Assembly: GCA_023920165.1 (NCBI GenBank)
Contig: CP089277.1
Location: 2,108,001-2,172,000, forward strand
Reading direction: 5' to 3'
Origin: Curvularia clavata
Taxonomy: Eukaryota
Length of the DNA stretch: 64,000 bases
The translations under genes and the position numbers were made by a program. A model generated the notes under the pieces. The model ran no database searches. It saw only the letters and a list, made by a program, of their open reading frames with translations, and was not told the origin of the DNA. Positions 48,575-64,000 of the stretch are shown here, in pieces. Each line of letters begins with the position of its first letter. Position 1 is the first letter of the stretch.

Positions 48575-49937
48575 GGAGAGTCTGGTACCCTGTTCAGACT
48601 TAAGGCACCACTTGCAATATGGAACCAGAATGAATTTACGGAAAGGAAGCTGGAGACTGCGGTTTCGTGAATGACTGGGCATGCAAGAGAAGCAATTTAT
48701 ATCGGGTAGACAAACGACTAGAGTGACTCCTGTATTGGTTCTATGTCCTCGGAATTGGTCACTCTTGAAGTCGTTGGTGATTACTCGTGATCTATCCACG
48801 CGTTCGCATCGGCCGCCTTTGGGCCTATATACACAGCGTTTGGTACTTACATCACGCGCAATTGTCCAGGTATGCAGATGTGTCATTAGTCGTTGGAGCC
48901 TCATGGGCTGCGATGCTGCTATCCAGGTTGATCGTGCCCCCTGTTATCTGGTTGGAAAACATGACATATCCGAGTTGACGATAGCATTAAGCCGGACATG
49001 ACTATGTCGCTCATGCACTTAACTAACGATGTGCTCCGTCATTCACGTACAATGCATCTATCTAATCACAAAGTAATGAAGCGAGTGAGAGCAACTCTTG
49101 TCTCAGTATCCTGATGGGGTACGCTTGAGGACACGGATGGGGTGAACTTGGCATCTTGATGCTACGTCCTAAAAGACAAAATTGCTGTACTAGTCGAAGT
49201 GGCTGCCGAACTTAGGTGAATAGAAGAATGTAATTCAATTGCTCGACAGACGTATCGGAAGTATCTTCAGGGATCCACGGCAGATAGATTCTGGGCAGAT
49301 CGGTTATTGGTGAGTGGAAGATACGTTTCCATGCGCCAGCAATCTTGATATGCTTTCTCCCATGCAAGTCCTTCTGTACTGGAACTGCGCATAGGGCTAT
49401 AAAGTCCCTTGATAGTTGAATTTTCTCATATTAGAAGCATCCAATATGCATCAAGTACGTCAGCTCCTGCAAGAGGTCCAGCTCAGGTACAGGACCTACG
49501 TCCATGTGGAGAATCGTCGCGGAAAAGGGTGATCTGGCTACCTCCGCGCCTGGCCGTTAGGTACGGCTGCCCCACATGTCCGCCATTAGGAACCGAGAAA
49601 CTAACATGGGAGTATGGTTTTACACGGGGTTCGTAATCTTTGCTACAGTGGCAAGAGGCTCGACCCGACTGGATGGTGCATAGCGTGTCGTTAGGTCATT
49701 CCGCTCCTTGTCACTAATTCCGCGCTCTGGGAAGACGGTTCGTTTTCCCCGCACCAGCCGGCATCATCACATAGGACTGCTGTGCTATTATCCCTGTGCA
49801 ACGAGTAGTGTATGGATGAAGTGGCCTGCCTTTTAATACCTACCTGCGCCTGCTAGAGAGAGAATTTTGTCGTGAATCAAATTTATCGTTCTCATGTCAG
49901 TTGCTACTCGCATCAACCCGCTACGCCAGTAATCATC

Positions 49938-51642
49938 ATGATCTCCACCATTCTTGATGTGCTATCTTCACAGTTAGCTAGCCATCCGTTCCAATCTTTC
50001 CTGCTTTTGACAATTTTTGCCCCCGTCCTATACATCTTGAGCAACGAGTATGTACGGTATTCGCGGCGCATCAAAGGATTTCCAGGACCAAGAAACTGGC
50101 CCTTGGTGGGCAACATCCCAGATATCAAATACAATGCAGCAGAAAAGTATCGAGAATGGAGCAAGACTTATGGTGCAGTGTACCAAATCCAGCTCGGGAA
50201 TGAGCCTGTGATTGTGGTAAACAGTGCAGAGGCTGCAAGAAAACTGTTTGGTGGCAACAGTCAAGCACTGAGCTCAAGGCCGGTTTTCTGGACTTTCCAC
50301 AAGGTGAGGTTTGCTGGTCGATGAATTGGGATGCATGGCTGAGTATAGCATAGGTGCTTTCGAACACTGCTGGTACGACAATCGGCACCTCGCCATTCAG
50401 TGAGTCGCTTAAGCGTCGGAGGAAGGGTGCTGCCTCTGCGTTGAACAAGCCTTCTATCGCGACATACGTAGATCATCTCGACCTCGAGACGAAGGAATTT
50501 ATCAAAGACGCTTTCGAATCAGGAAACGCTGGAACTGCGAGCGTGGATCCGATGCCGATGATAGAGCGTCTCTCTCTCTCACTCGCGTTGACACTCAACT
50601 GGGGGACGCGCATGAGTAGCCGCCATGACCCCATGTTCCACGAGATATGTGAAGTTGAGGCTGCGATATCAAAATTTCGCAGCACCACTGGAAATTTGCA
50701 GGATTACATTCCCATACTGAGACTGAACCCCTTCAGCTTGGGTACCAGATCAGCAAAAGAGTATCGTAATCGCAGAGACGTCTACTTGACCAAGTTGAAT
50801 CGTGATTTAGACGAACGTATGGAGAAGGGCGTTCACAAGCCATGCATCCAAGCGAACATCATCCAAGACAAAGATGCGGCGCTAAACAAAGAAGAGCTGA
50901 CATCAATTAGCTTGACGATGTTGTCAGGAGGACTGGACACAATTACGACGTTGGTCCAATGGAGCGTGGCCCTGCTCGCTCAAAGACCGGATATTCAAGC
51001 CAAGGCAATTCAGGAGATTAGGAAATTCCATTCGGAGAAGGAGCCGCTGGCCGATGCCTACGATGACCAGAAGTGTGGATATATTGCGGCGTTGGTTCGA
51101 GAGTGTCTGCGGTACTATACCGTTCTACGACTGGCCCTTCCGCGGGCAACAGTCAAGGATGTGATGTACGACGGCAAGCTCATCCCAGCCGGGAGCACGA
51201 TATACTTGAATGCATGGGCGTGCAACATGGGTAAGCAGTGTTGTGGTTTCGACAGTACAACAGTACACTTGGTGGTGCAATGCTGATTCTTGCGTGTCTA
51301 GACCCTGAGGTTTGGAGCGATCCAGATGAGTTCCGGCCAGAGCGCTGGCTCGAACAGCCTGATGCGCCACTGCACAGCTATGGGCTAGGATACAGGATGT
51401 GTGCTGGCTCGCTGTTGGCTAACCGGGAGCTGTACCTGGTATTTCTGAGGATGTTGAACAGCTTCGAGCTCGTTCCGGATTCGGATGTGGACGTGCATCC
51501 TGTGCGAGGCAGCTCCGATCCTACCAGCCTTGTGACCATGTGCCGAGCTTACAAGGTCATCTTCAAGCCGCGGAACGAGCGGATACTGCGTGAGGCATTG
51601 AGGGCGGCGGATGAGCGATTGGCCGGGCATGAGAAGACATGA
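49938..51642 (+). CDS. Cytochrome P450, CYP504 family (phenylacetate/3-hydroxyphenylacetate hydroxylase, PhacA/PhacB-like)
   Basis: N-terminal anchor, GTTIGTSPFSESLKRRRKGAASALNKP, I-helix SGGLDT, ECLR, PERW, heme motif YGLGYRMCAG. Introns 50304-50353 and 51231-51301. Confidence 0.9.
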
Positions 51643-52025: not shown

Positions 52026-54309
52026 ATGTTCAGAAAGACAATGCTCTCAGGCGACGAGGAACTGGGCAAGAAAGACGACGATCACCGATTCAAGCCAATA
52101 CGGCAGTCGAGTTGGTCCATATGGGGCCACTCTTTTCGCTGGCGCCGGCGGAGGATAGTGCTTGCCATGGTTGGCCTGTTGCTGGTATATTATCTGCTCC
52201 ATGGCACTGCAGATGACGTCGACAGCTTCACCCCCCAGCAATATCCGTCAACTCTGGGGCGACCGACAACCTCCACGTATACGAACCCGAGCGCAGACCA
52301 AGACGAGCCTACTGGGGCACCCGAGGGCATACAGAGATCGGTCCGGGGAGAGCCCACGCCCCATGGATATGATGGGCAGGTACGCTTCTTTCGCCTCGCC
52401 AGCAGTTTGCGGTCGTCGGCCTCGACGACGGGCGGCTACGACAAGAAGAACAGAAACATACTCTTTGCCATATCGGCCCTTCAGAGTGCTTCTGTGCTAT
52501 TGTCCATGGCATGCGACATGTCCAAATGGAACAGGAACCATGTCCATGTAGCTTTCATGGGAAGGGATGGGATACCTTTGGAAGATCTGCTCGAGATCAA
52601 TGGCATAGACAAGACCGAGTGCCCTGCTATGTGGCACGATGCACGGCCAGACTATGCAGAGTACGTCCGTCCAGCTTGTATGACCACTTGAGGCGGTTGC
52701 CACTCTGGGCTGACATGCTGTCTACAGATACAGCACTGATTCACGCGCCGAGTCCGCAGTAAAAGGCGCCTTGTCGCACATCGATTACTTCCTCCATCCC
52801 CAGGCCGTTATCATTCATGACACGCTGTCGGAAGACGGATTTTTTGTTCGAGGCATGCGGAGCAAGACAGATACACTACATATGGCTCTCATCGAGGTAC
52901 CCAAGGATAGGCTCGATGATTTTACATGGGTTACCCGGCTTGACGCAGGATCACTAAAGCGCTGGCACGACCCTACTATAGACATCCTGATTCAGGTACC
53001 ACCATACTCTTCGAGTGTCCTGCAGTTACTCAAGTCAATCAAAGATGCAGATTACAGTGGCCTAAGGCCGCCACACATTACCCTTGAGTTACCGGCCCAG
53101 CTCGATAGGTCGGTGGAAGAATACATTACGAAATTCAAGTGGCCACCCAGCAGCAACGAGCACTATGTGGGGAGCGGACTTACTGTCAGACGGCGTATTG
53201 CGAACCACGGGTCCAATCAGGAGGAATCAGCTATACGCTTCCTTGAGCTCTTCTATCCGGCGAGCTCCACTAATTCGCATGTGCTTCTGCTTTCTTCGCA
53301 AACGCACGTCGCCCGGCAGTACTTCCACTTTGTCAAGTATGCGCTGCTGGAATACAAGTACTCTGCATTTGGCACTCATGATAGTGGGGATCTGATGGGC
53401 GTGAGCCTTGAGCTGCCGACAAAGCTCTTAGATAATCAAGCGAAGCTCAAACTCCCATCAACCAGCGACATGCATACAGATCGGTACAAAAAGCTATACC
53501 CCGAGGCTAAGAGTGCGCCGTTCCTGTGGCAGGCTCCCAACAGTCACGCAACGTTATTCTTTGGAGGAAAATGGGCAGAGTTCCACTCCTTCTTGAGCAA
53601 CCGGGTAGTCAAGCGTCAAGATTCAGTCAAGTGGACGCCGCGAGCGAAACTTGTGTCGGAGACACTGCCAGCGTGGTCCGAGTATATGCTTGAATTCATG
53701 CGAGCCCGGGGTTACTCGCTATTATATCCTGCGATAATGCCTAGTGAGATTGTCACCATACACAAGGAGCTATATCAGACCCCCGAGGAGTTTAGTGCGT
53801 CACTCGAAGATGCCAATGGAGAAGCACAGGCGGTAAGAAAGAATGAAGCTTTTCAACGTGCAGGGACACGGCCAGGCGTGCCCAATGGGGCAGAAACAAA
53901 GGCGACGACGGATGCACAACCTCTTCATCTGGTACTCCCCTTTGACGGCGATCTCCCCGAGATTCCTCACTTGCCTTTGTTGCTTTACAACGGCCAACAG
54001 ATGGATGCTGCCAACGTGTCAACCATTGCACAAGCGTACGCTGAGCAATTCCGCAAGGAGGTGGGCGGGTGTGAGACAATCAAAGGAAAGCACAGGAAGA
54101 GGGTCGAGGGACAGGCGGGCGATTTGTTTTGTTTCGGTAGCGAGGGCAGGGAGGATTGGGAAGAAGACGAGACGAGGGAGACGGAGCTGTTTGATGCACC
54201 GATTGACGACCAGTTGGAGAAGCTGCTTGTGGATGGGCTGCCAACAACGACGGCATTGGCAAAGGATGGGAAGCCTACGAGGACAGCGACAGGGGCTGAT
54301 AGTGCATAG
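52026..54309 (+). CDS. Type II membrane glycosyltransferase-2-like protein
   Basis: DEELGKKDDD N terminus, RRRR followed by a TM helix, WHDARPDY, FLELFYP, PFLWQAPNS. Intron 52661-52727. Confidence 0.75.
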
Positions 54310-54714
54310 GCAAAGAGGAGAAGAGATGCATATTTGTGTTGTTCAAATCTAAGGTTCGTTTCTAGTATTGACATGAGGCTACTGTATCGCGTGCGTGTGG
54401 CGCAGGTGGCGCAGGTGATGGTGGCGGCGGGGCTCGGAAAGGCTCGGCGCCATGCCGCATTCGCTATGACGCCGACAGGGCGGGAGATTTTTTGGGTCGA
54501 GAATCTTCATCCACAGCGGCCACGCCTGCCTGCCCATTTCTTGCCCTTTCTCTGCGTGCGCGATCCCCTCAATTCATCTTCTGGCGTTGAAGCATATTTG
54601 GGGTTCCTTTTCCTTCTCTTGTTGTTCTTGTTCTTCTTTCTTCCTTCATACTGTTTAGATACCCCCCCAAATTCGTCGAGACACGCAGCAAGAAGACGGC
54701 AGGCATTGGGCACG

Positions 54715-57700
54715 ATGCTTGCACGAGCAGCCGGACGGAAACTGCGCAGGAATGCCTTTACCACGCCCACCACTCTTTCACACCAACTGGCCTTGCCATG
54801 GCTGTGCCCTGCGCTGTCGCGTGCAAACTCACACACGCCTTCGATAGCTGCACGCCGCAGCGCACACGACTCAACACCCCGGCGGCGACAACGGCGCTCA
54901 TCGCTCTCTCTTTCCCTCTCCCCATCCGCACGCCATGAGACACGCTCCCTCGCCACGACGGCCGAACTACAGCCCCCGCCTCCCTCGCCGCTGCCATTCA
55001 ATCCCTTCTCCCAAGCCTTTGGTCGCCAATTACCCGACTCCGACCTCGCCCATCTCCCCACCTGGGATGCTCTCAATCCCCTGGTTGTACACGATTCTCT
55101 AACCTCCGCGCCGCAACTTCGCGCCGTTCCAGGTGTTGGCAGCGACCCCACAGAACTCCATCAAAACCTATACGCATGTCTACGGGTCGGCCGTACAGAT
55201 CGTGCTGCTATAATCATCAATCGCCTCATGTCTTTGTACCGACCGGACGCTCCCGAAGTCATCGATGCTCACAACGTATACCTTCAGACCCTGTTGGACT
55301 TGGGCCAAATGGATACCAAAACCTCTGCAATGGAGAAAATCCGGACTTGGTATGAAACAAAAATGTTGCGAAAAGCCGTCCAACCCAATGCTCAGACATT
55401 TGTCACTCTGATACGCTCTGCCATGCACTTCCTCGAACCTGGTGCAGCAGAAGACGCTGTCCGACAGTACATCAAAGCTGCCCGTGAGCATGGCGAGCAT
55501 GTTGTCGACAGCATCAATGCCTCGCCCGACTTCTCCGATGAAGAGTGGGACCTTTTGATCCGTCTCCAGCCAGAATCGTTTAATGAGCCCCCGCCAGTCG
55601 ACCAAGTTCAACATCTTCATGTCAGTACACCCACCGGTCGCAACAACCTAATCGCGCACGGCTTGCTATCGCATCCTGCTCAAGAAATCAAGCCAGTCAA
55701 GCAGAAAGGCATGGGCTTGGACTCATTGAAAGAAGCTCTCAGCATCTTTGACCATGGCGAGCGCGTCCCTTATCCGCACGATATGGATGGCACCCAAGAG
55801 GAGAAAGATCAGGCCTATGCTTACGCAAGACAATTGCAAATGGAACAAGATGGCATTGACGCGGCTGTCAAAAGATGGAAGGCTGAAGACGAGAAGCTAC
55901 AAGAAATGGGCATCCATGGCGTCATGAACAAGAAGCCAATCCAAGCCATGATGTATGGTTGGTATACTGCTCTTGTACCACTCTTCAAAAAGCGAATCGA
56001 GCATGCCAAGCAGGTCCTACTTGAGCCTCCAAAGGCTACAAATCGAGATGATGCCCATGAATACGGAGTCTGGCTCGAGCGATGCAGCCCTGAGAAACTA
56101 GCAGCTATCACTGTTGCTCGTACCACCCAGGCTGCAGTCAAAGGCAAAGGCGAGGATAGCTCCGCCCTTAAAATATCGGCCTTGTCCATTGCTGTGGGGA
56201 ATGACATCGAGGACTACCTCAATAGTGAATCTCAAACTCGCCGAGATGCCTTTCTCAAAAAGCAACGGAAACAAACACGCCTCGATCTGGTCAACACACT
56301 CTCCAAATCGGGCCCTACACTATCTTCTGAAACAGCAACCCAACCTGGGGAAAACAACCTTTTTAGGTTTGAGAAGGCCGACATGCCTCTTTCGGCCCGG
56401 ACAAAGCTTGGTGCTATGTGCATAGAACAGTTACTCCAGTCTGCCACCCTCATTGTCACCGCCAATGACCCAAGAACTGGCAAGCTTGTGTCTCGTAGCA
56501 TGGCTGCTTTCCATCACCAAGTCGGTTTTCACCAAGGAAAGAAGCTCGGCTTCATAGTACCACATCATGAGCTTTTGGCCAAAATGCGCACAGATTCTGT
56601 TCATAGCATTCAGACTGTCCGCCTGCCAATGGTTATCGAACCAAAGCCGTGGTCGAGTTTCGAAGACGGTGGATACTACACTGTGCCGCAAAAGATTGTT
56701 CGACAGAAAGGTGGTGACAGTGCTCAGCGGGCTTATGCCCAGCTGGCTATAGAGAACGGCGACATGTCCAAAGTCATGGCTGGGTTGGATGTGCTTGGAC
56801 GAGTCCCCTGGCAAATCAATGCCCCTGTTTTCGACGTCATGGCCCGTGCTTGGAACGCTGGTGAGAGTATTGGTTCGCTCGTTGGTGAAGATGCCCTCGC
56901 AAGTCATGAGCGTCCTATAGAGCCTCCTGCGGATGCATCATTCCAAGAACGATTGCGATGGAACAAGGCTCTTCAAGAGTACGAAAACACTATCGGTGGT
57001 CTTCATTCCCAACGCTGCTTCCAGAACTTTCAACTCGAGACTGCCCGAGCATACGTTAATGAGAAAAGGATATACTTCCCGCACAGTGTGGATTTCCGAG
57101 GTCGAGCATACCCGATACCCCCTATCCTCAACCACATTGGTTCCGATGTCGCAAGAGGACTTCTTAAATTTGCGCACGGTAAAGAGCTTGGTGTTGTTGG
57201 ACTGCAGTGGCTCAAGATCCACCTTGCCAACTTGTACGGTTTTGACAAGGCCAGCCTGCGAGAGAGGGAACAGTTCGCAATGGATAATATGAATGAGATC
57301 TACGATTCAGCAAGCAACCCACTCGGAGGCCGGCGGTGGTGGACTAAAGCCGAAGATCCATGGCAATGTTTGGCATGTTGCATGGAGTTGAAGAATGCTT
57401 TCGACCTGCCCGATCCAACTCGCTTTGTATCACAACTGCCCGTCCACCAAGACGGGACCTGTAATGGGCTCCAGCATTATGCCGCTTTGGGTGGCGATCA
57501 TGCAGGTGCTCGTCAAGTCAATCTCGAACCTTCGGATAGACCACAGGACATTTACACGGGAGTGGCGGAGCTAGTGAAGGAGATGGTCGCCAAAGATGCC
57601 AGCAAAGGAGTACCCGTTGCCGTCTTCATAAACGGTCATATCTCTCGAAAGGTTGTGAAGCGAACTGTCATGACCAACGTTTACGGTGTCACGTTCATGG

Positions 57701-59007
57701 GTGCGAAACAGCAAGTCCAAGATGAGCTGCGCAATATCTTCCCTCATTTCCAGCGTTCAGACAAGATCAAATCGCTGGGAAGTGTTGCTTTGTATGTTGC
57801 GCAAAAAATCTTCGAGGCATTGGGAAAAATCTTCAATGGCGCGCAAGAGATCCAATACTGGCTGGGCGAATGTGGCGATCGTATCACAACATCAATTTCG
57901 GCTGAACAGATCAAACGAATCCAAGAACGATCCGAGGGAATGGACCCCGCGGAAGCGCTATACGATTCAAAGTTCGCTGCACCTAAAAAAGTCACTGCAC
58001 TCCAAATCAACAAGCTAAACAAGAACCTTGAGAAGTTCAAGACTAGCATCATCTGGACCACGCCCCTCAAGATGCCCATTGTGCAACCTTACAGAAAAGA
58101 CAGCGTCCAGAAGATTAGAACAAAGATACAGGATATCACTGTCTCAAAGAGATCGCAACAGGACGAGGTCGACAAGCGCAAGCAGTTGCAAGCGTTTCCT
58201 CCGAATTTCATTCATTCCCTTGACGCCACACACATGACTCTATCAGCTCTGAAGGCCAATGAAATGGGCCTTGATTTCGCAGCAGTGCACGACAGTTTCT
58301 GGACGCACGCGTCCGATATCCCCAATCTGAATGTCATTCTTCGTGATGCATTCGTGCGTATGCACACTGAAGACATCGTCGGCCGCCTAGCTGCCGAGTT
58401 CTCGGCGCGCTATGCAGGAGCCATGTATCGCGCCACCATTATCAGTACATCCGAGGCGGGTCGAAAGATTACCAAATGGAGACTAGAGCGCCGGAAGAAC
58501 GAAGGCAAGGCGCTGAAAGCTGGAGGATTGACGAGAGGAGAGGCTACATTCGAAGAGGTTGCGCTTGAGGCTAAGCGGCAAGAACTGTTACAGAGCGAAG
58601 ACCCAAATGAAAGGAAAAAGGGCGAGGAAATGGAAACACCAACCAGCATTTGGCTTGCGAACCAGGATCCACAGGCGCTACATTCGTTCCGTCTTCAACT
58701 GCTCGGTGAAACCAAAGAGAAGAAATCTGCAGAACGGCAGACGGAAATCAGGGACAAGGTCCTAGGTGGGGAAGCAGAGGCCATTACTACCACCGAATCC
58801 ACCATTGATGTTGTCGAGGATGATGCGGAAGACCTTGCAAAAGACCCTCAGAGTGGCGGTCTTCATGGCAAGAAGAAGCCAGTCTCCCGTGTTGCTGCTG
58901 ACATAAGCACAATCCAGGTCTGGGTTCCCTTGACCTTCCCTCAAATCCCCAAAAAAGGTGGCTGGGATGTTTCTCGTCTCCGGGAATCGAAGTACTTTTT
59001 CTCATGA
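54715..59007 (+). CDS. RPO41: Mitochondrial DNA-directed RNA polymerase (T7-like)
   Basis: Presequence MLARAAGRKLRR; DFRGRAYP; motif A PVHQDGTCNGLQHY; motif B RKVVKRTVMTNVYG; FPPNFIHSLDA; motif C AVHDSFWTH; C-terminal SKYFFS. Confidence 0.98.
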   Translation: MLARAAGRKLRRNAFTTPTTLSHQLALPWLCPALSRANSHTPSIAARRSAHDSTPRRRQRRSSLSLSLSPSARHETRSLATTAELQPPPPSPLPFNPFSQAFGRQLPDSDLAHLPTWDALNPLVVHDSLTSAPQLRAVPGVGSDPTELHQNLYACLRVGRTDRAAIIINRLMSLYRPDAPEVIDAHNVYLQTLLDLGQMDTKTSAMEKIRTWYETKMLRKAVQPNAQTFVTLIRSAMHFLEPGAAEDAVRQYIKAAREHGEHVVDSINASPDFSDEEWDLLIRLQPESFNEPPPVDQVQHLHVSTPTGRNNLIAHGLLSHPAQEIKPVKQKGMGLDSLKEALSIFDHGERVPYPHDMDGTQEEKDQAYAYARQLQMEQDGIDAAVKRWKAEDEKLQEMGIHGVMNKKPIQAMMYGWYTALVPLFKKRIEHAKQVLLEPPKATNRDDAHEYGVWLERCSPEKLAAITVARTTQAAVKGKGEDSSALKISALSIAVGNDIEDYLNSESQTRRDAFLKKQRKQTRLDLVNTLSKSGPTLSSETATQPGENNLFRFEKADMPLSARTKLGAMCIEQLLQSATLIVTANDPRTGKLVSRSMAAFHHQVGFHQGKKLGFIVPHHELLAKMRTDSVHSIQTVRLPMVIEPKPWSSFEDGGYYTVPQKIVRQKGGDSAQRAYAQLAIENGDMSKVMAGLDVLGRVPWQINAPVFDVMARAWNAGESIGSLVGEDALASHERPIEPPADASFQERLRWNKALQEYENTIGGLHSQRCFQNFQLETARAYVNEKRIYFPHSVDFRGRAYPIPPILNHIGSDVARGLLKFAHGKELGVVGLQWLKIHLANLYGFDKASLREREQFAMDNMNEIYDSASNPLGGRRWWTKAEDPWQCLACCMELKNAFDLPDPTRFVSQLPVHQDGTCNGLQHYAALGGDHAGARQVNLEPSDRPQDIYTGVAELVKEMVAKDASKGVPVAVFINGHISRKVVKRTVMTNVYGVTFMGAKQQVQDELRNIFPHFQRSDKIKSLGSVALYVAQKIFEALGKIFNGAQEIQYWLGECGDRITTSISAEQIKRIQERSEGMDPAEALYDSKFAAPKKVTALQINKLNKNLEKFKTSIIWTTPLKMPIVQPYRKDSVQKIRTKIQDITVSKRSQQDEVDKRKQLQAFPPNFIHSLDATHMTLSALKANEMGLDFAAVHDSFWTHASDIPNLNVILRDAFVRMHTEDIVGRLAAEFSARYAGAMYRATIISTSEAGRKITKWRLERRKNEGKALKAGGLTRGEATFEEVALEAKRQELLQSEDPNERKKGEEMETPTSIWLANQDPQALHSFRLQLLGETKEKKSAERQTEIRDKVLGGEAEAITTTESTIDVVEDDAEDLAKDPQSGGLHGKKKPVSRVAADISTIQVWVPLTFPQIPKKGGWDVSRLRESKYFFS

Positions 59008-59621
59008 CTCAGTCCTGCACTTCGAGGCGACTCTGAACGCGAGTTTTTTGCGCCCGATAACTACACGCCCATCACAGCAACAGAACAGATTCGCAGAATT
59101 AGCAGGATGTTCAGATTGCAGGACGAGTGTGGATGGCATGTCAATATCAGTCCTCTGGCCTGGTGGAGAGAGGCGCATCCGGGCAGCTCAACAACTCAAG
59201 GGAGGAGGAGGAAAGCTGGCGAGACGAGAGGCAGGAAAAAACTTGTATCTTCTATGTAATGATAGTAACCCCTCTTATCTTTTATGAATGAATGTATGTA
59301 ATATGTTTCACAGCAATCGACACGTACGAGAAATAAGTCTATGTTCTTCTCATGGACATTATGGACTAGTCTCTCAATTGCGATAGAACGACTGCTCTGG
59401 CCTTGTAGCTGCAGATTGCCAGCCCTCGCAGGCAATCGATCGGACAAATGAGAATTATGAAGGTTTTTCGTCTGTACTTTGAACGCTAGGTATTTTGACA
59501 AGCTTATACAGGGTCCGGGTGCTACGCGGATGCTTGTATGTACGGAAGTATGTGATTTGGGATCTACCGTGTGGAATGGAAAGATAGCGATCGGAGACAA
59601 GCGCTTGCGAGCGATAACAGA

Positions 59622-60956
59622 TCAGAGAGAGACCCTTTGCTCAGGGATGGATTCAACCGTATTAATATCGACCACACTGGGCATCTCTACAGCCGGTGCA
59701 TCATTCCAGCGAAGGCTAGGAGAGTTCAAAAGATCCATTCTTTCCTCGGCTCTCATACGGTCTGCGGTGATTCTCTTTGGGTAGTTGCGCATGAACATGT
59801 TCGTGAAGTGGGTACCATAGTGAATTCCTTCTTTAGGTTCTTGACCGGCTTGGAATCCTGACAATGGCTTCATAACGGCGGAGAAGTTGGGTTCGTGGAA
59901 GTAAGCAAATGCGAAGCGCTCGCGGGTGTTGAGGCCAACTTTGTGGGGCGTGGATGGGAGGTATGAGTTTGTGATGTATTGCATCATGTCGCCCTGTAAT
60001 GGTGGTCAGAATAGGTGTCTCCCCAAGAATACCGTGAGACAGTGACTTACAGGGAAAACAGTAAATACATCAGGCACAGGAGGGACGTAAACCCAGCCTT
60101 CGGCATCCTCGTGCTTACCAGCCGCACTCTCTTTCCAGTTGGCGTAAGTCTCACCCTCAATAGGAGGACGGATGAACAGACCGCCAACATCATCTTGAGC
60201 GGCAATTACTAGAAGACCATAGTCGGTATGGGAGCCAATACCGCGACCAGCTTTGCCCTTTCCATTAACGTTGTTAGCCTCTGGGAAGCGCAGAATACGC
60301 ATATGGTGCCAGCCATCCTGCGTACACCGGGTCAGGGCGTTGCCGTCTCTCAAACCAAGCCCCCAAGCAATGAGTTGCAGCATCTTTTCACCGCTCTCGC
60401 CAAGGTAGTCCATGTACGCCTGCATGACCGTCTTCATCTGACTAAAGGGCCAGGGGCACGGGCCATGACACGGCCACCTTTGCTGAACGCGCGGATCAGA
60501 AAGTGCAAGATCCTTGGTGACGGTGAAAATCTCACTGTAATCAGCGATATTGTCGGTTATTTCCTCTCCCGAAGCGATGTACCCGGCGAAAGACTGATCG
60601 TCTAGGCAAGCTGCTTTCTTCTTGTAGTCAAGGCCGAAGAACTTCTTGCTGCAGAGAAAGGCTGCATCCGCAAGCTTCCGATTGATAGGATCCATGGAAA
60701 TTTGGAGAATACCATCTCTCCTCCAAGCATCAATCATGCTTTTGCCCAGAGCCTTGTCGGCCGCACTACCGCTTAGGGTCTCGGGAAGCTCGAATGTCTG
60801 GAGTTGGCCAACAGTCGCTTTATGACCAGGTGGCATAGTAGAAGTCCTATGATCAGCCACAGTTGCCAACCCTCGGAATAAGCTAGCTTGTGGGAATACT
60901 CGGTAAGGTGGTGTGCGGATCATTTTTTGTGTATGAATTATAGCACGGTTTGCCAT
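59622..60956 (-). CDS. efe: 2-oxoglutarate/Fe(II)-dependent ethylene/succinate-forming enzyme (EFE) homologue, 425 aa
   Basis: LQTFELPE, AWRRDGILQI, GYIASGEEIT, DYSEIFTV, WPCHGP, GWHHMRILRFP, GIGSHTDYGLLVIAAQDDVGGLFIRPP, FTVFPGD, STPHKV, RERFAFAYFHEPNF, HYGTHFTNMFMR. Intron 60050-59994. Confidence 0.95.
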
Positions 60957-63339
60957 ATTTTCGTGGTCAAGAAGCAAGTTGAGATAAGAAAATAAGGAGC
61001 AATCAGGTAAGTAATTGGAGAATTGAGAAGATTCAGTGAGAAAAGAATAGAGACTGGATGTGATGCTTCTGATCTCTACATATCCCTTTCTCTTTATATA
61101 TAATTTGACTTCGATTGCTCTAATCCCAATTCCAGCAGCTGTTGCAATTACAGTTTCTATTTCCACCAGGATTTGGAAGTCAGTCTATCCAAGCCACCCA
61201 ACGTGGAATCAAGCGGATGTACAACCTTGTCTAACTGTAGTTCTCAATTGCACATACACAGATCAATACTAATGAGGTTAAGAGGCAGGTCTAGCCCCAG
61301 CGGTACTAGGGGCCCTGGCTCCAAGGATGACATCAACCAGCAATTCTGGAACATCTAGACAAGGTATTTCGGGATATCTGGTTTATTGTCCCTAGTGATT
61401 ATGTCGGTGAAGCTGACAGCAAGAGATGGCCAATAACAACTATCACTAATCATTATCATTCTTCGCAGAATAGGGGGTTGTGCTCTTGTCACCGCTACCC
61501 TGTGAGGCTTGTCACTGACGAGCATGAACACCATGTAGCTCCGGAAGTCCAAAGTGATGTCAAGCTGATGGTAGTACATATAATAGATACAGGTACTGTC
61601 AGTGAAGGATAGTCAGGTCCATCCAATCTGTATGTCAGCACGGAGACAATACATATCTTGCTAGCTTAACTTCATTAGGAATGGGTGTCTATTTGTCTGT
61701 TTATTTGATTGAATTAACATCCTATCTAAAACCTCGCATGGGATATGTAGACGAATATGCCTAGGGCTTACATACTTGGGAATGGATGTCGGTAGTTAGA
61801 ATAGCCAACCAGATTGCTTCAAAGTATTGATTGTCACTCTGAGAATCTCATGCAAGTCGGTCAAACAATGAATCGCAACTGCCGAGTGGAACTGGCTTTA
61901 CAATAGTTCGCGGCATGCATTATGGGATACCAAATGTGAGAATGCTGAACAGGGCGTGCAGAGTATAGTTTACTTCAGGTAATCCAAGGGACCAAGAGGA
62001 CAGTGATTGGTGTTGAAAATGACTTGATCAGGTATTGAATCAAAACCATCACATCTGAAGTTAGTCGATCGGGGCCTAGACCACGCCTGCAAGGTCACTT
62101 TTACATCTTCTCAAGACTCTAAATTATATGTACATATGTGTGGCAACAATAGGGGTCGCAGAAACCTCGGTCAAGTAGCTGTTCTAAACTGTCAGAAGGT
62201 CTAGATCTCATGTCGGATCATATTCAGCTGCCGGAGATATGCGGACTATTTTCGGAGAGATACCCCTGGATCGAGGCGGAAACCTTACGGAGTGACCTCC
62301 GTACCACGTAGGTCGCAACGGAGGATCTGATCTCATATTTCCAACCGCCACTTAGCAGGGATCAACGGCGGTTACGCGGGCAGATGTCAGTTTTGGAAGG
62401 TAGGCCTTACCAAATGCGAAACCCGGGGCTAATTCTGTCTTCGCCGCAAGGCGGAATAGCTAGTATGAATTTCTTTAGCGTGGTGTTCTTACATTCTCCC
62501 ATGTCAAGTCCCGTGATGACTTTGTGCGATGCAGAGTTCCGTGATTGACTTGGGCTTAGAACGGGCAAAAAATTGATCTTGAAACCCACATAATTGCTGT
62601 GCTGCTTGTCTGAAAACAAGAGATAACCAAGGGGGGGTTAATTTTTCGGTCCTCCCGATGATGTACACTCCCATCAGGGCTGACATCGCTTTAGCCTTTA
62701 ATAATACAACCGAGGATTATTACGCGACACCTTGACGAGAGTAGTATATGGGTATGTCCGTGATTGCTGACTAGAGTCTTACGATGAGAAACGAATCCAA
62801 GGTTTCAGAATGTATCTCAGATAACATGGTGATACTCTAAGCGGTGAGGATGTCAAGGCGAGATGAAAATCGAGTGGGTCCACAAGAATTGCCCGGCACG
62901 AAGAGTGTATTCAGACAAGGAAAGGCCGAGTTTTGTACTACGCTTTGAGATGCCGATGCGTGAGAAAGCTGAATATCGCTAAGCAGATCTTGGCTCGGCG
63001 TCCTCCATTTACATGATACGTGGATGTCAGAGGGTTTACTTCTGGTGCAATAAAAACACGCTCTTTCAAGGTGCATTTTCAATGAAACAAGCACCAGGTA
63101 AAGCAGAGCTTCTATAAAGGATGCAGAAGGGAGCGTCAACAGGCTCGTGGGCGTACACTCCTACTGAAGGAAGATCGAAATTGAAAAGGACTTACTCTTA
63201 ACTCGACTACCTACAAGCAATTAAGTGCTGTTCCTTAAGATTCCACGCAGCACTCAGTAACATTAGGTCAATTTAGTGGACCTATAAGTGGTGTGTATAC
63301 TGAAATGCCTCCCATCGAAAGATTCAATTCTGTCCACTA

Positions 63340-63920
63340 AGAACTTTTCATGTTCAGCCAGAAGTTTTGAAGTGACTGAGAGGCTGCCATCCTCTCCTCG
63401 GGCAACCATTTTAACATGGACGTGATGGAGCTCAGTGACAAACGCCTGTTCTTCTCTATCAACAGCATGGATTATGTCGCCGAGGGATAGCCGAGGCAAA
63501 AGCACTCCACCAGTTTCCTTCCATTAGGCTGATATAAATTAGCTAGATCTCCGGGATTCGGGGTAGATGTTACTGACCATCGTCGTCAAAACTCTTGCGC
63601 GTAGTTTCACTTCCGTAAATGTACTCGGATGGTCCCAATCTAAGACAGACAACCATCTCGGCGACTTGGTGAGTTTCGGGAGGCTCTTTAGTCTCATCGA
63701 CAGCGTTAGACATATAGTTGTTTTCAAACATATCCCATGTCTTTATTGGCTTAGTAAATCGAGCACGTCCAGAATCGCATAGAACCGGCTGGCCCCAAAG
63801 TGAATCATTGGGAAGACCAAGCTTGTGAGTGCTTCATATCGTGCGAGTGCTGTCCACAACCTTTCTTTGGGTAACATATCTTTGCTTCAGCGTTCGCCCC
63901 ACTCCCAAGATCGGACTCAT
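63340..63920 (-). pseudogene. SRPK-like (CMGC) protein kinase remnant
   Basis: RKVVDSTRTI*STHKLGLP..WGQPVLCDSGRAR (DFG-equivalent), TWDMFEN, HQVAEMV, WKETGGV and SMLKWLPEERMAASQ lie in several frames with a stop. Subdomains VIII-IX missing. Confidence 0.75.
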
Positions 63921-64000
63921 TGGCTTTCGCCAATGTCCTAGATGCTTCAAGCGAGCTATTTATGCATGCAAGTAACAATGTAATACACTATAACATATAG

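Follow-up and report, generated by a model that had tools for sequence, protein, structure and literature searches.

The window analysed here, a 64,000-nucleotide stretch of the Curvularia clavata genome (assembly GCA_023920165.1, contig CP089277.1, positions 2,108,001 to 2,172,000), carries on its minus strand an intact two-exon gene of the ethylene-forming enzyme (EFE) family, the 2-oxoglutarate-dependent ethylene/succinate-forming enzymes (EC 1.13.12.19 / 1.14.20.7). With the ATG at 60956, the spliced product has 425 amino acids. Judged by its sequence, the gene is the nuclear orthologue of the Penicillium digitatum EFE in a Curvularia-type fungus (Pleosporales), and the evidence as a whole makes it probable that this orthologue is made as a mitochondrial precursor and forms ethylene. 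It is also an ordinary, already annotated fungal EFE gene: residues 41-425 are letter for letter the 385-residue NCBI protein P0001, named '2-oxoglutarate-dependent ethylene succinate-forming enzyme [Curvularia clavata]', and both the leader and the Asn-for-Cys change discussed below were previously described for the Penicillium enzyme. What the analysis adds is a corrected start codon (60956 instead of 60836) and several family-wide regularities, which matter little beyond annotation. The Curvularia gene raises no new question on EFE mechanism; as a gene of a leaf-spot fungus, it is a sensible candidate for a source of fungal ethylene.

We propose that the 425-residue precursor most likely begins with a mitochondrial presequence some 30 residues long, which would be cut near R28-G-L/A31 (the slash marks the cut) to leave a matrix enzyme of about 395 residues. 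Supplied with Fe(II), O2, 2-oxoglutarate (2OG) and L-arginine, the mature enzyme would be expected to carry out both known EFE reactions: the conversion of 2OG to ethylene and CO2 with L-Arg bound as effector, and a reaction that couples 2OG's oxidative decarboxylation to the hydroxylation of L-Arg at C5, which yields guanidine and pyrroline-5-carboxylate (P5C).

An intact fungal EFE gene

Searches with phmmer against P. digitatum EFE chain 9eir gave E-values of 1e-120 for exon 1 and 4.5e-42 for exon 2, so that chance similarity is not an issue; against the Pseudomonas savastanoi EFE (PsEFE) chains the values were 2e-78 and 3.5e-26. The P. digitatum enzyme (9EIR) is the nearest solved structure, with 67.6% identity over 358 aligned residues. 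The first ten distinct solved-structure sequences are all EFE, and they are followed by 6jyv, a 'Probable iron/ascorbate oxidoreductase', at 7e-19. Pfam recovers DIOX_N (PF14226, E 3.2e-17), and 2OG-FeII_Oxy as sub-threshold halves on either side of the intron.

The original prediction of an intact gene interrupted by an intron agrees with the gene model and with the match to 9eir, which runs without a gap: exon 1 ends at residue 310 of that chain and exon 2 starts at residue 311, which supports the splice junction. Among the 120 best database relatives, 77 are continuous across the intron point. At least 19 of the 120, called unspliced and mostly from metagenome or Logan contigs, stop a few residues after TVFP(G) (P0002, P0012, P0045, P0061, P0071, P0092, P0040, P0055, P0066, P0067, P0077, P0080, P0082, P0084, P0086, P0095, P0097, P0111 and P0119), and would therefore have an intron at the same site. 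Fusarium homologues have an intron ahead of the last exon (PMC6746940).

Contigs from four of ten sequencing runs, each only guessed to be RNA, were aligned to the window. They cover the EFE gene in scraps at depth 2-3 only, between 59691 and 60585. No contig from these runs joins across the 57-nt intron, the sole contig there (59862-60052, depth 2.8) retaining it, and none lies over 60586-61300, which includes the start region of the gene.

As a separate observation, one depth-2 contig (run X3) skips 49 nt, 60405..60453, within EFE exon 1. On the plus strand the skipped segment has GT..AG borders, and a CTGAC-like branch site precedes the AG. This suggests a spliced antisense transcript, because in the sense of the EFE gene the skip would be CT..AC and would shift the frame.

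PsEFE numbering was mapped from HMMER alignments, and the window residues were checked by script. The iron triad is kept (H243, D245 and H319, corresponding to PsEFE H189, D191 and H268), as are the two 2OG-binding arginines (R328 and R220; PsEFE R277 and R171) and the L-Arg site (E132, T134, Y246, R371 and Y373; PsEFE E84, T86, Y192, R316 and Y318). Every motif quoted in the original prediction is present in the translation: SHTDY, STPHKV, HMRILRF, RERFAFAYF, GEEIT, DYSEIF, WPCHGP, HEPNF, FTNMFMR, MRNYP and RGLA.

An AlphaFold model of the 385-residue form has a mean pLDDT (per-residue confidence) of 86.8 and a pTM (global confidence) of 0.87, and pLDDT falls below 50 only in the last 24 residues (362-385 of that form). 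The predicted structure folds as a double-stranded beta-helix surrounded by the helices specific to EFE. All Foldseek hits at ranks 1-34 are EFE chains (TM by target 0.91-0.96, E 2e-51 to 2e-38), and entries after rank 34 have E-values of 5e-25 or weaker.

Compared with the P. digitatum Pd1 enzyme (efeA; 9EIR, 9EIS), the window protein shares the fold (TM by target 0.93), the longer loop between the metal ligands (the NGKGK insert), Asn at the position of PsEFE Cys317 and Phe at that of Cys280, and a basic N-terminal extension ahead of an MPP(G/N) sequence. It differs in a C-terminal tail of about 25-30 residues that is predicted to be disordered, in Met rather than Ile at PsEFE position 254, and in Ile/Glu rather than Ala/Asp at positions 212/213. 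The two presequences are not alignable in detail. Likeness to the P. savastanoi pv. phaseolicola PK2 enzyme (5V2Y, 5LUN, 6VP4 and others) amounts to 50-53% identity in the model alignment and a TM by target of 0.93-0.96, with an identical iron triad, identical 2OG and L-Arg contacts and the same hydrophobic pocket residues. The PK2 enzyme differs in having no presequence, no intron and no C-terminal tail, Cys at both 280 and 317, and a shorter loop after residue 180.

Probable ethylene output and its alternatives

The variants D191E and A198V of PsEFE, and variants of F283 and E285, lose ethylene formation according to a review (PMC10467617), which was also our source for the list of PsEFE residues that are critical for ethylene, with hydroxylation retained, or that line the hydrophobic pocket. 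The ethylene-critical residues are all kept in the window protein (D245, A252, F334 and E336; PsEFE D191, A198, F283 and E285), and so are F301 and A332 of the pocket (PsEFE F250 and A281) and, from the same list, E269 and Y361 (PsEFE E215 and Y306). Also kept are A253 and I359 (PsEFE A199 and I304).

Johansson et al. (2014, PMC4202696) obtained no ethylene when they tested a Penicillium chrysogenum homologue in yeast ('data not shown'). The same study found ten positions that separate this non-producer from two producers, and reported that mutation clearly lowered ethylene at the PsEFE sites A199, V212/E213 and I304 (PMC4202696). In the window protein the ten positions are occupied, in order, by L, I, A, I, E, E, M, F, I and I. 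Seven of these are identical to PsEFE as counted in our residue table (L, A, E, E, F, I, I), and another two differ conservatively (V172 to I, the P. digitatum residue, and V212 to I). The sites A199, V212/E213 and I304 are in the producer state.

Cochliobolus miyabeanus is close kin of Curvularia. Ethylene production by C. miyabeanus is reported in work (Van Bockhaven 2015) cited in PMC7558865. We found no study of a Pleosporales EFE in open-access text covering Curvularia, Cochliobolus, Alternaria, Bipolaris and Pyrenophora. We consider it likely that the Curvularia enzyme forms ethylene.

Several points weigh against this. Met305, at the position of PsEFE I254, is the sole non-producer-type residue among the ten; the effect of the I254M mutation in PsEFE was not significant (PMC4202696). 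PsEFE directed to yeast mitochondria was reported inactive (PMC4202696). Finally, the P. chrysogenum-type non-producer (P0094) shares 86.3% identity with the active P. digitatum enzyme and the window protein just 67.6%, and homology alone thus does not prove ethylene output.

The strongest alternative, which we hold to be unlikely, is an EFE-family enzyme with no or marginal ethylene output, acting mainly as a 2OG-dependent L-arginine C5 hydroxylase or as a 2OG decarboxylase, like the P. chrysogenum homologue. The P. chrysogenum/rubens protein P0094 (Pc18g05950, P. rubens) bears all the non-producer substitutions of Johansson et al. and yet lies beside the active P. digitatum enzyme in our tree, inside the Penicillium clade, so that ethylene output can be lost by few changes. 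Putting back the ten correlated residues failed to rescue the P. chrysogenum homologue, and these positions are insufficient to explain activity (PMC4202696). Many fungi that live elsewhere than on plants also have the family (Neurospora, Metarhizium, Beauveria, Elaphomyces), and the Met at the I254 position is that of the non-producer. Against a hydroxylase without ethylene stand the four residues whose change abolishes ethylene and not hydroxylation, all of them kept, together with the retention of A199, E213 and I304 and the ethylene reported from C. miyabeanus. P0094 resembles the window protein in belonging to the same fungal clade, in a presequence-like extension and in Asn at the 317 position, and differs in L22M, V172T, A199G, V212Y/E213S, E235D, F278Y, I304N and I322V. 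None of these changes occurs in the window protein, and the two share the I254M state only.

One further residue had been put forward as a determinant of the balance between the two reactions. The original prediction placed a Cys in the MRCYP motif of Pseudomonas syringae where the window protein has Asn, and the alignment confirms this (FMRCYP in PsEFE vs FMRNYP here). Its suggestion that Asn could shift the ratio of ethylene formation to Arg hydroxylation does not hold, and we reject Asn372 as a specificity switch: the published N380C mutant of the P. digitatum enzyme has an ethylene/P5C partition ratio of 6.1 +/- 1.7 vs 6.6 +/- 0.7 for the wild type, and its kinetics for L-Arg are similar to wild type (PMC12060275). 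Nor is the Asn peculiar to Curvularia. All 83 fungal matches with an alignable motif have it (the region being absent or unmatched in the other 37 of 120), which makes it the norm in fungi, and the bacterial loci examined have Cys (17/20) or Ser (3/20). The substitution is therefore a marker of the clade and not a lead.

The N-terminal leader and the start codon

The original prediction described about 50 extra N-terminal residues, rich in Arg, nearly free of acidic residues and containing RGLA. Our count agrees: residue 51 of the window protein aligns with residue 3 of PsEFE, so the extension over the PsEFE chains is 48 residues, and residues 1-50 include 5 Arg, 2 Lys and 1 Asp and no Glu. 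Asp and Glu are both missing from residues 1-34, residues 1-29 include 4 Arg and 1 Lys, and the net charge is positive. The maximum hydrophobic moment, 0.63, falls at residues 4-14, an amphipathic stretch, and R28-G-L30/A31 fits a processing motif of the R-3 type. These are simple measures of composition and motif and not the output of a trained predictor.

The same features recur across the family. We surveyed 121 sequences, the window protein and its 120 best fungal matches, and found the MPP(G/N) anchor in 101. At least 25 residues stand ahead of it in 71 of these 101. When the last 12 residues are excluded, 49 of the 71 long extensions have no acidic residue and 17 have one. Many relatives carry an Rx[LFYMI][AST] motif 12-22 residues ahead of the anchor. 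The length and the basic, acid-free nature of the 40 upstream codons are kept in Alternaria, Plenodomus, Diplodia, Elsinoe, Colletotrichum and others. Of the 101 anchored sequences, the remaining 30 begin at the anchor or close to it, like the deposited models P0001 and P0044.

The idea of a mitochondrial presequence is not new. For the P. digitatum EFE, Johansson et al. (2014) shifted the start 147 bp upstream and reported a MitoProt score of 0.95 with cleavage after residue 33, and the purified enzyme lacks the extension, its N-terminus lying just past the predicted cleavage (PMC4202696). Chatterjee et al. (2025) expressed this enzyme from Leu37, in a 'mitochondrial targeting sequence-removed' form (PMC12060275). 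Extending the 9eir alignment without gaps places this Leu37 opposite residue 28 of the window protein, beside the RGL/A motif. The leader predicted here thus looks like a presequence, as the original prediction had it, and the proposal itself was in print for the Penicillium enzyme by 2014 (PMC4202696). We consider a mitochondrial location of the Curvularia EFE likely.

The deposited NCBI model counts against this location, since it begins at Met41. Translation from Met41 would give a cytosolic enzyme, and use of both starts would give mitochondrial and cytosolic forms; we regard either outcome as improbable. Met41 has A at -3, and the MPP(G/N) sequence that begins there is the one kept in 101 of the 121 sequences, so that family members throughout have an internal start at hand. 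On the other side, a start truncated in this same way proved to be wrong for the P. digitatum EFE, where the purified enzyme begins upstream (PMC4202696, PMC6746940). The 40 codons ahead of Met41 are open, conserved in length and basic character, and headed by the ATG at 60956, which stands in a good, strong context (GAAAATATGG); the frame stays open for 76 codons upstream of this ATG without a further ATG. The deposited Curvularia model therefore appears to lack its first 40 codons, with the start at 60956 and not at 60836, and automated localisation calls for that protein would be wrong as a result.

Placement among relatives and the surrounding locus

The tree contained 81 rows: the window protein, 52 named fungal sequences, 20 of 80 bacterial loci and 8 representatives. 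The fungal rows were chosen from the 120 best matches, leaving out unnamed, truncated and near-duplicate sequences. A quick IQ-TREE run was used (LG+C20, SH-aLRT support only). PsEFE PK2 is not among the rows, its place being taken by the Pseudomonas homologues L016, L066 and L076, and the outgroup consists of distant representatives on very long branches that are not monophyletic.

All 53 of the 53 fungal rows form one clade (SH-aLRT 99, stem length 0.67) with bacterial EFE-type rows around it. The clade includes the P. digitatum PHI26 protein, so the window protein sits together with the Penicillium enzyme, as the original prediction would have it. Within it the window protein groups with Pyrenophora, Alternaria and Plenodomus (98), then with Botryosphaeriales (96) and then with Elsinoe (95). 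Eurotiomycetes and Sordariomycetes are each in their own groups, and the clade broadly follows the fungal classes. After P0001, the best named matches come from Pyrenophora tritici-repentis (92%), Plenodomus lindquistii (88%) and Alternaria alternata (84%). The single fungal clade, the fixed intron, the universal Asn and the near-universal basic leader together give tidy comparative support to a proposal made from one Penicillium enzyme.

Two other placements deserve mention. A second Pleosporales group (P0024, P0035, P0046 and P0083, from Corynespora, Ascochyta twice and Polyplosphaeria; support 99) lies apart from that of the window protein, which points to either an old paralogy or a transfer within Dothideomycetes. 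P0036, labelled Austropuccinia psidii (a rust, Basidiomycota), comes from a contig of 8.7 kb and clusters with Diaporthe and Discula (98); it is likely a contaminant contig or a transfer.

In all, 1164 proteins match at E 1e-3 or better, and the weaker ones will include other oxygenases. The best 120 of the 1164 are all at E 5e-108 or better, and their named genera span at least five classes of Pezizomycotina. These are Dothideomycetes, Sordariomycetes, Eurotiomycetes, Leotiomycetes and Geoglossomycetes. The patchy fungal distribution that had been noted understates this spread, although losses do exist, for instance in Fusarium graminearum, which is reported to be without EFE (PMC6746940).

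Bacterial relatives are numerous. A genome scan confirmed 188, in Lentzea, Myxococcus, Streptomyces, Frankia, cyanobacteria and Pseudomonas. Matches were also found in 334 plasmid records, Ralstonia megaplasmids among them. The best bacterial identity is about 57%. Among the plasmid records, the best tblastn match is a Ralstonia solanacearum megaplasmid homologue (53.8% identity over 92% of the query), which differs from the window gene in being bacterial and in lacking the intron and the extension. The R. solanacearum EFE homologue makes ethylene. Despite this abundance in bacteria, an origin by bacterial contamination, against which the original prediction argued from the 57-bp GT-AG intron, or by an insertion of bacterial DNA in very recent times can be rejected: the intron is of spliceosomal type and at a position common to the fungal clade, the gene lies beside a fungal mitochondrial RNA polymerase gene, and the protein groups inside Pleosporales within the fungal clade.

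Tentatively, these patterns could reflect one old bacterial acquisition, after which the intron, the presequence and the Cys-to-Asn change would have arisen in the fungal ancestor, with the gene then kept in at least five classes of Pezizomycotina, saprobes and insect pathogens included. The selected role might then be mitochondrial turnover of arginine and 2-oxoglutarate (to guanidine and P5C), with ethylene a by-product exploited by some plant-associated lineages, perhaps including Curvularia and Cochliobolus. We offer this as a possibility to which we attach limited confidence.

Table 1. Features of the EFE gene, in window coordinates
Feature	Position	Strand	Description
Exon 1	60051..60956	-	Codons 1-302; presequence, DIOX_N and initial half of the core 2OG-Fe(II) oxygenase domain with H243-T-D245
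Putative presequence	60867..60956	-	Codons 1-30; 4 Arg and 1 Lys, no acidic residue
Met41 codon	60834..60836	-	Start of the deposited 385-residue NCBI model; third in-frame ATG, after Met1 and Met12
H243-T244-D245 codons	60222..60230	-	PsEFE H189 and D191, two of the three iron ligands
Intron	59994..60050	-	57 nt, GTAAGT...CAG, phase 0, between ...VFTVFP and GDMMQY...
Exon 2	59622..59993	-	Codons 303-425 and TGA (59624..59622); residues of the next row and C-terminal tail
Exon 2 residues	59622..59993	-	H319 (PsEFE H268), R328 (R277), F334 (F283), E336 (E285), Y361 (Y306), R371-N372-Y373 (R316-C317-Y318)
Asn372 codon	59784..59786	-	Position of PsEFE Cys317 and P. digitatum EFE Asn380
C-terminal tail	59625..59696	-	Codons 402-425; absent from the Penicillium and Pseudomonas enzymes (alignment); predicted disordered (pLDDT)

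The EFE gene lies tail to tail, 614 nt from stop to stop, with a 1565-codon plus-strand frame at 54310..59007. This frame matches RPOL_N (E 1.7e-85) and RNA_pol (E 4.7e-192), which identifies it as the mitochondrial RNA polymerase gene RPO41, the neighbour that had been named from the letters of the window. The likely start Met of RPO41 is at 54715, and the N-terminus from there is Arg-rich and presequence-like. Contigs of about 5.1 kb from three of the presumed-RNA runs (depth 49-260) extend from the RPO41 side to 59644, 59682 and 59691 (region 59300..59691). They reach 22-69 nt past the EFE stop, and the convergent 3' ends may therefore overlap.

Neither strand of the roughly 2.8 kb upstream of the EFE gene (61200..64000) has an open frame of at least 110 codons, and the G+C content there is lower, 0.43-0.48 vs 0.50-0.54 in the genes. 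Beyond RPO41, a 531-codon plus-strand frame (52714..54309) has no Pfam match at E 1e-3. Further on, adjacent plus-strand frames at 49857..51642 match pieces of cytochrome P450 (PF00067, E 2.7e-31 for 50354..51283) and presumably form one intron-split P450 gene.

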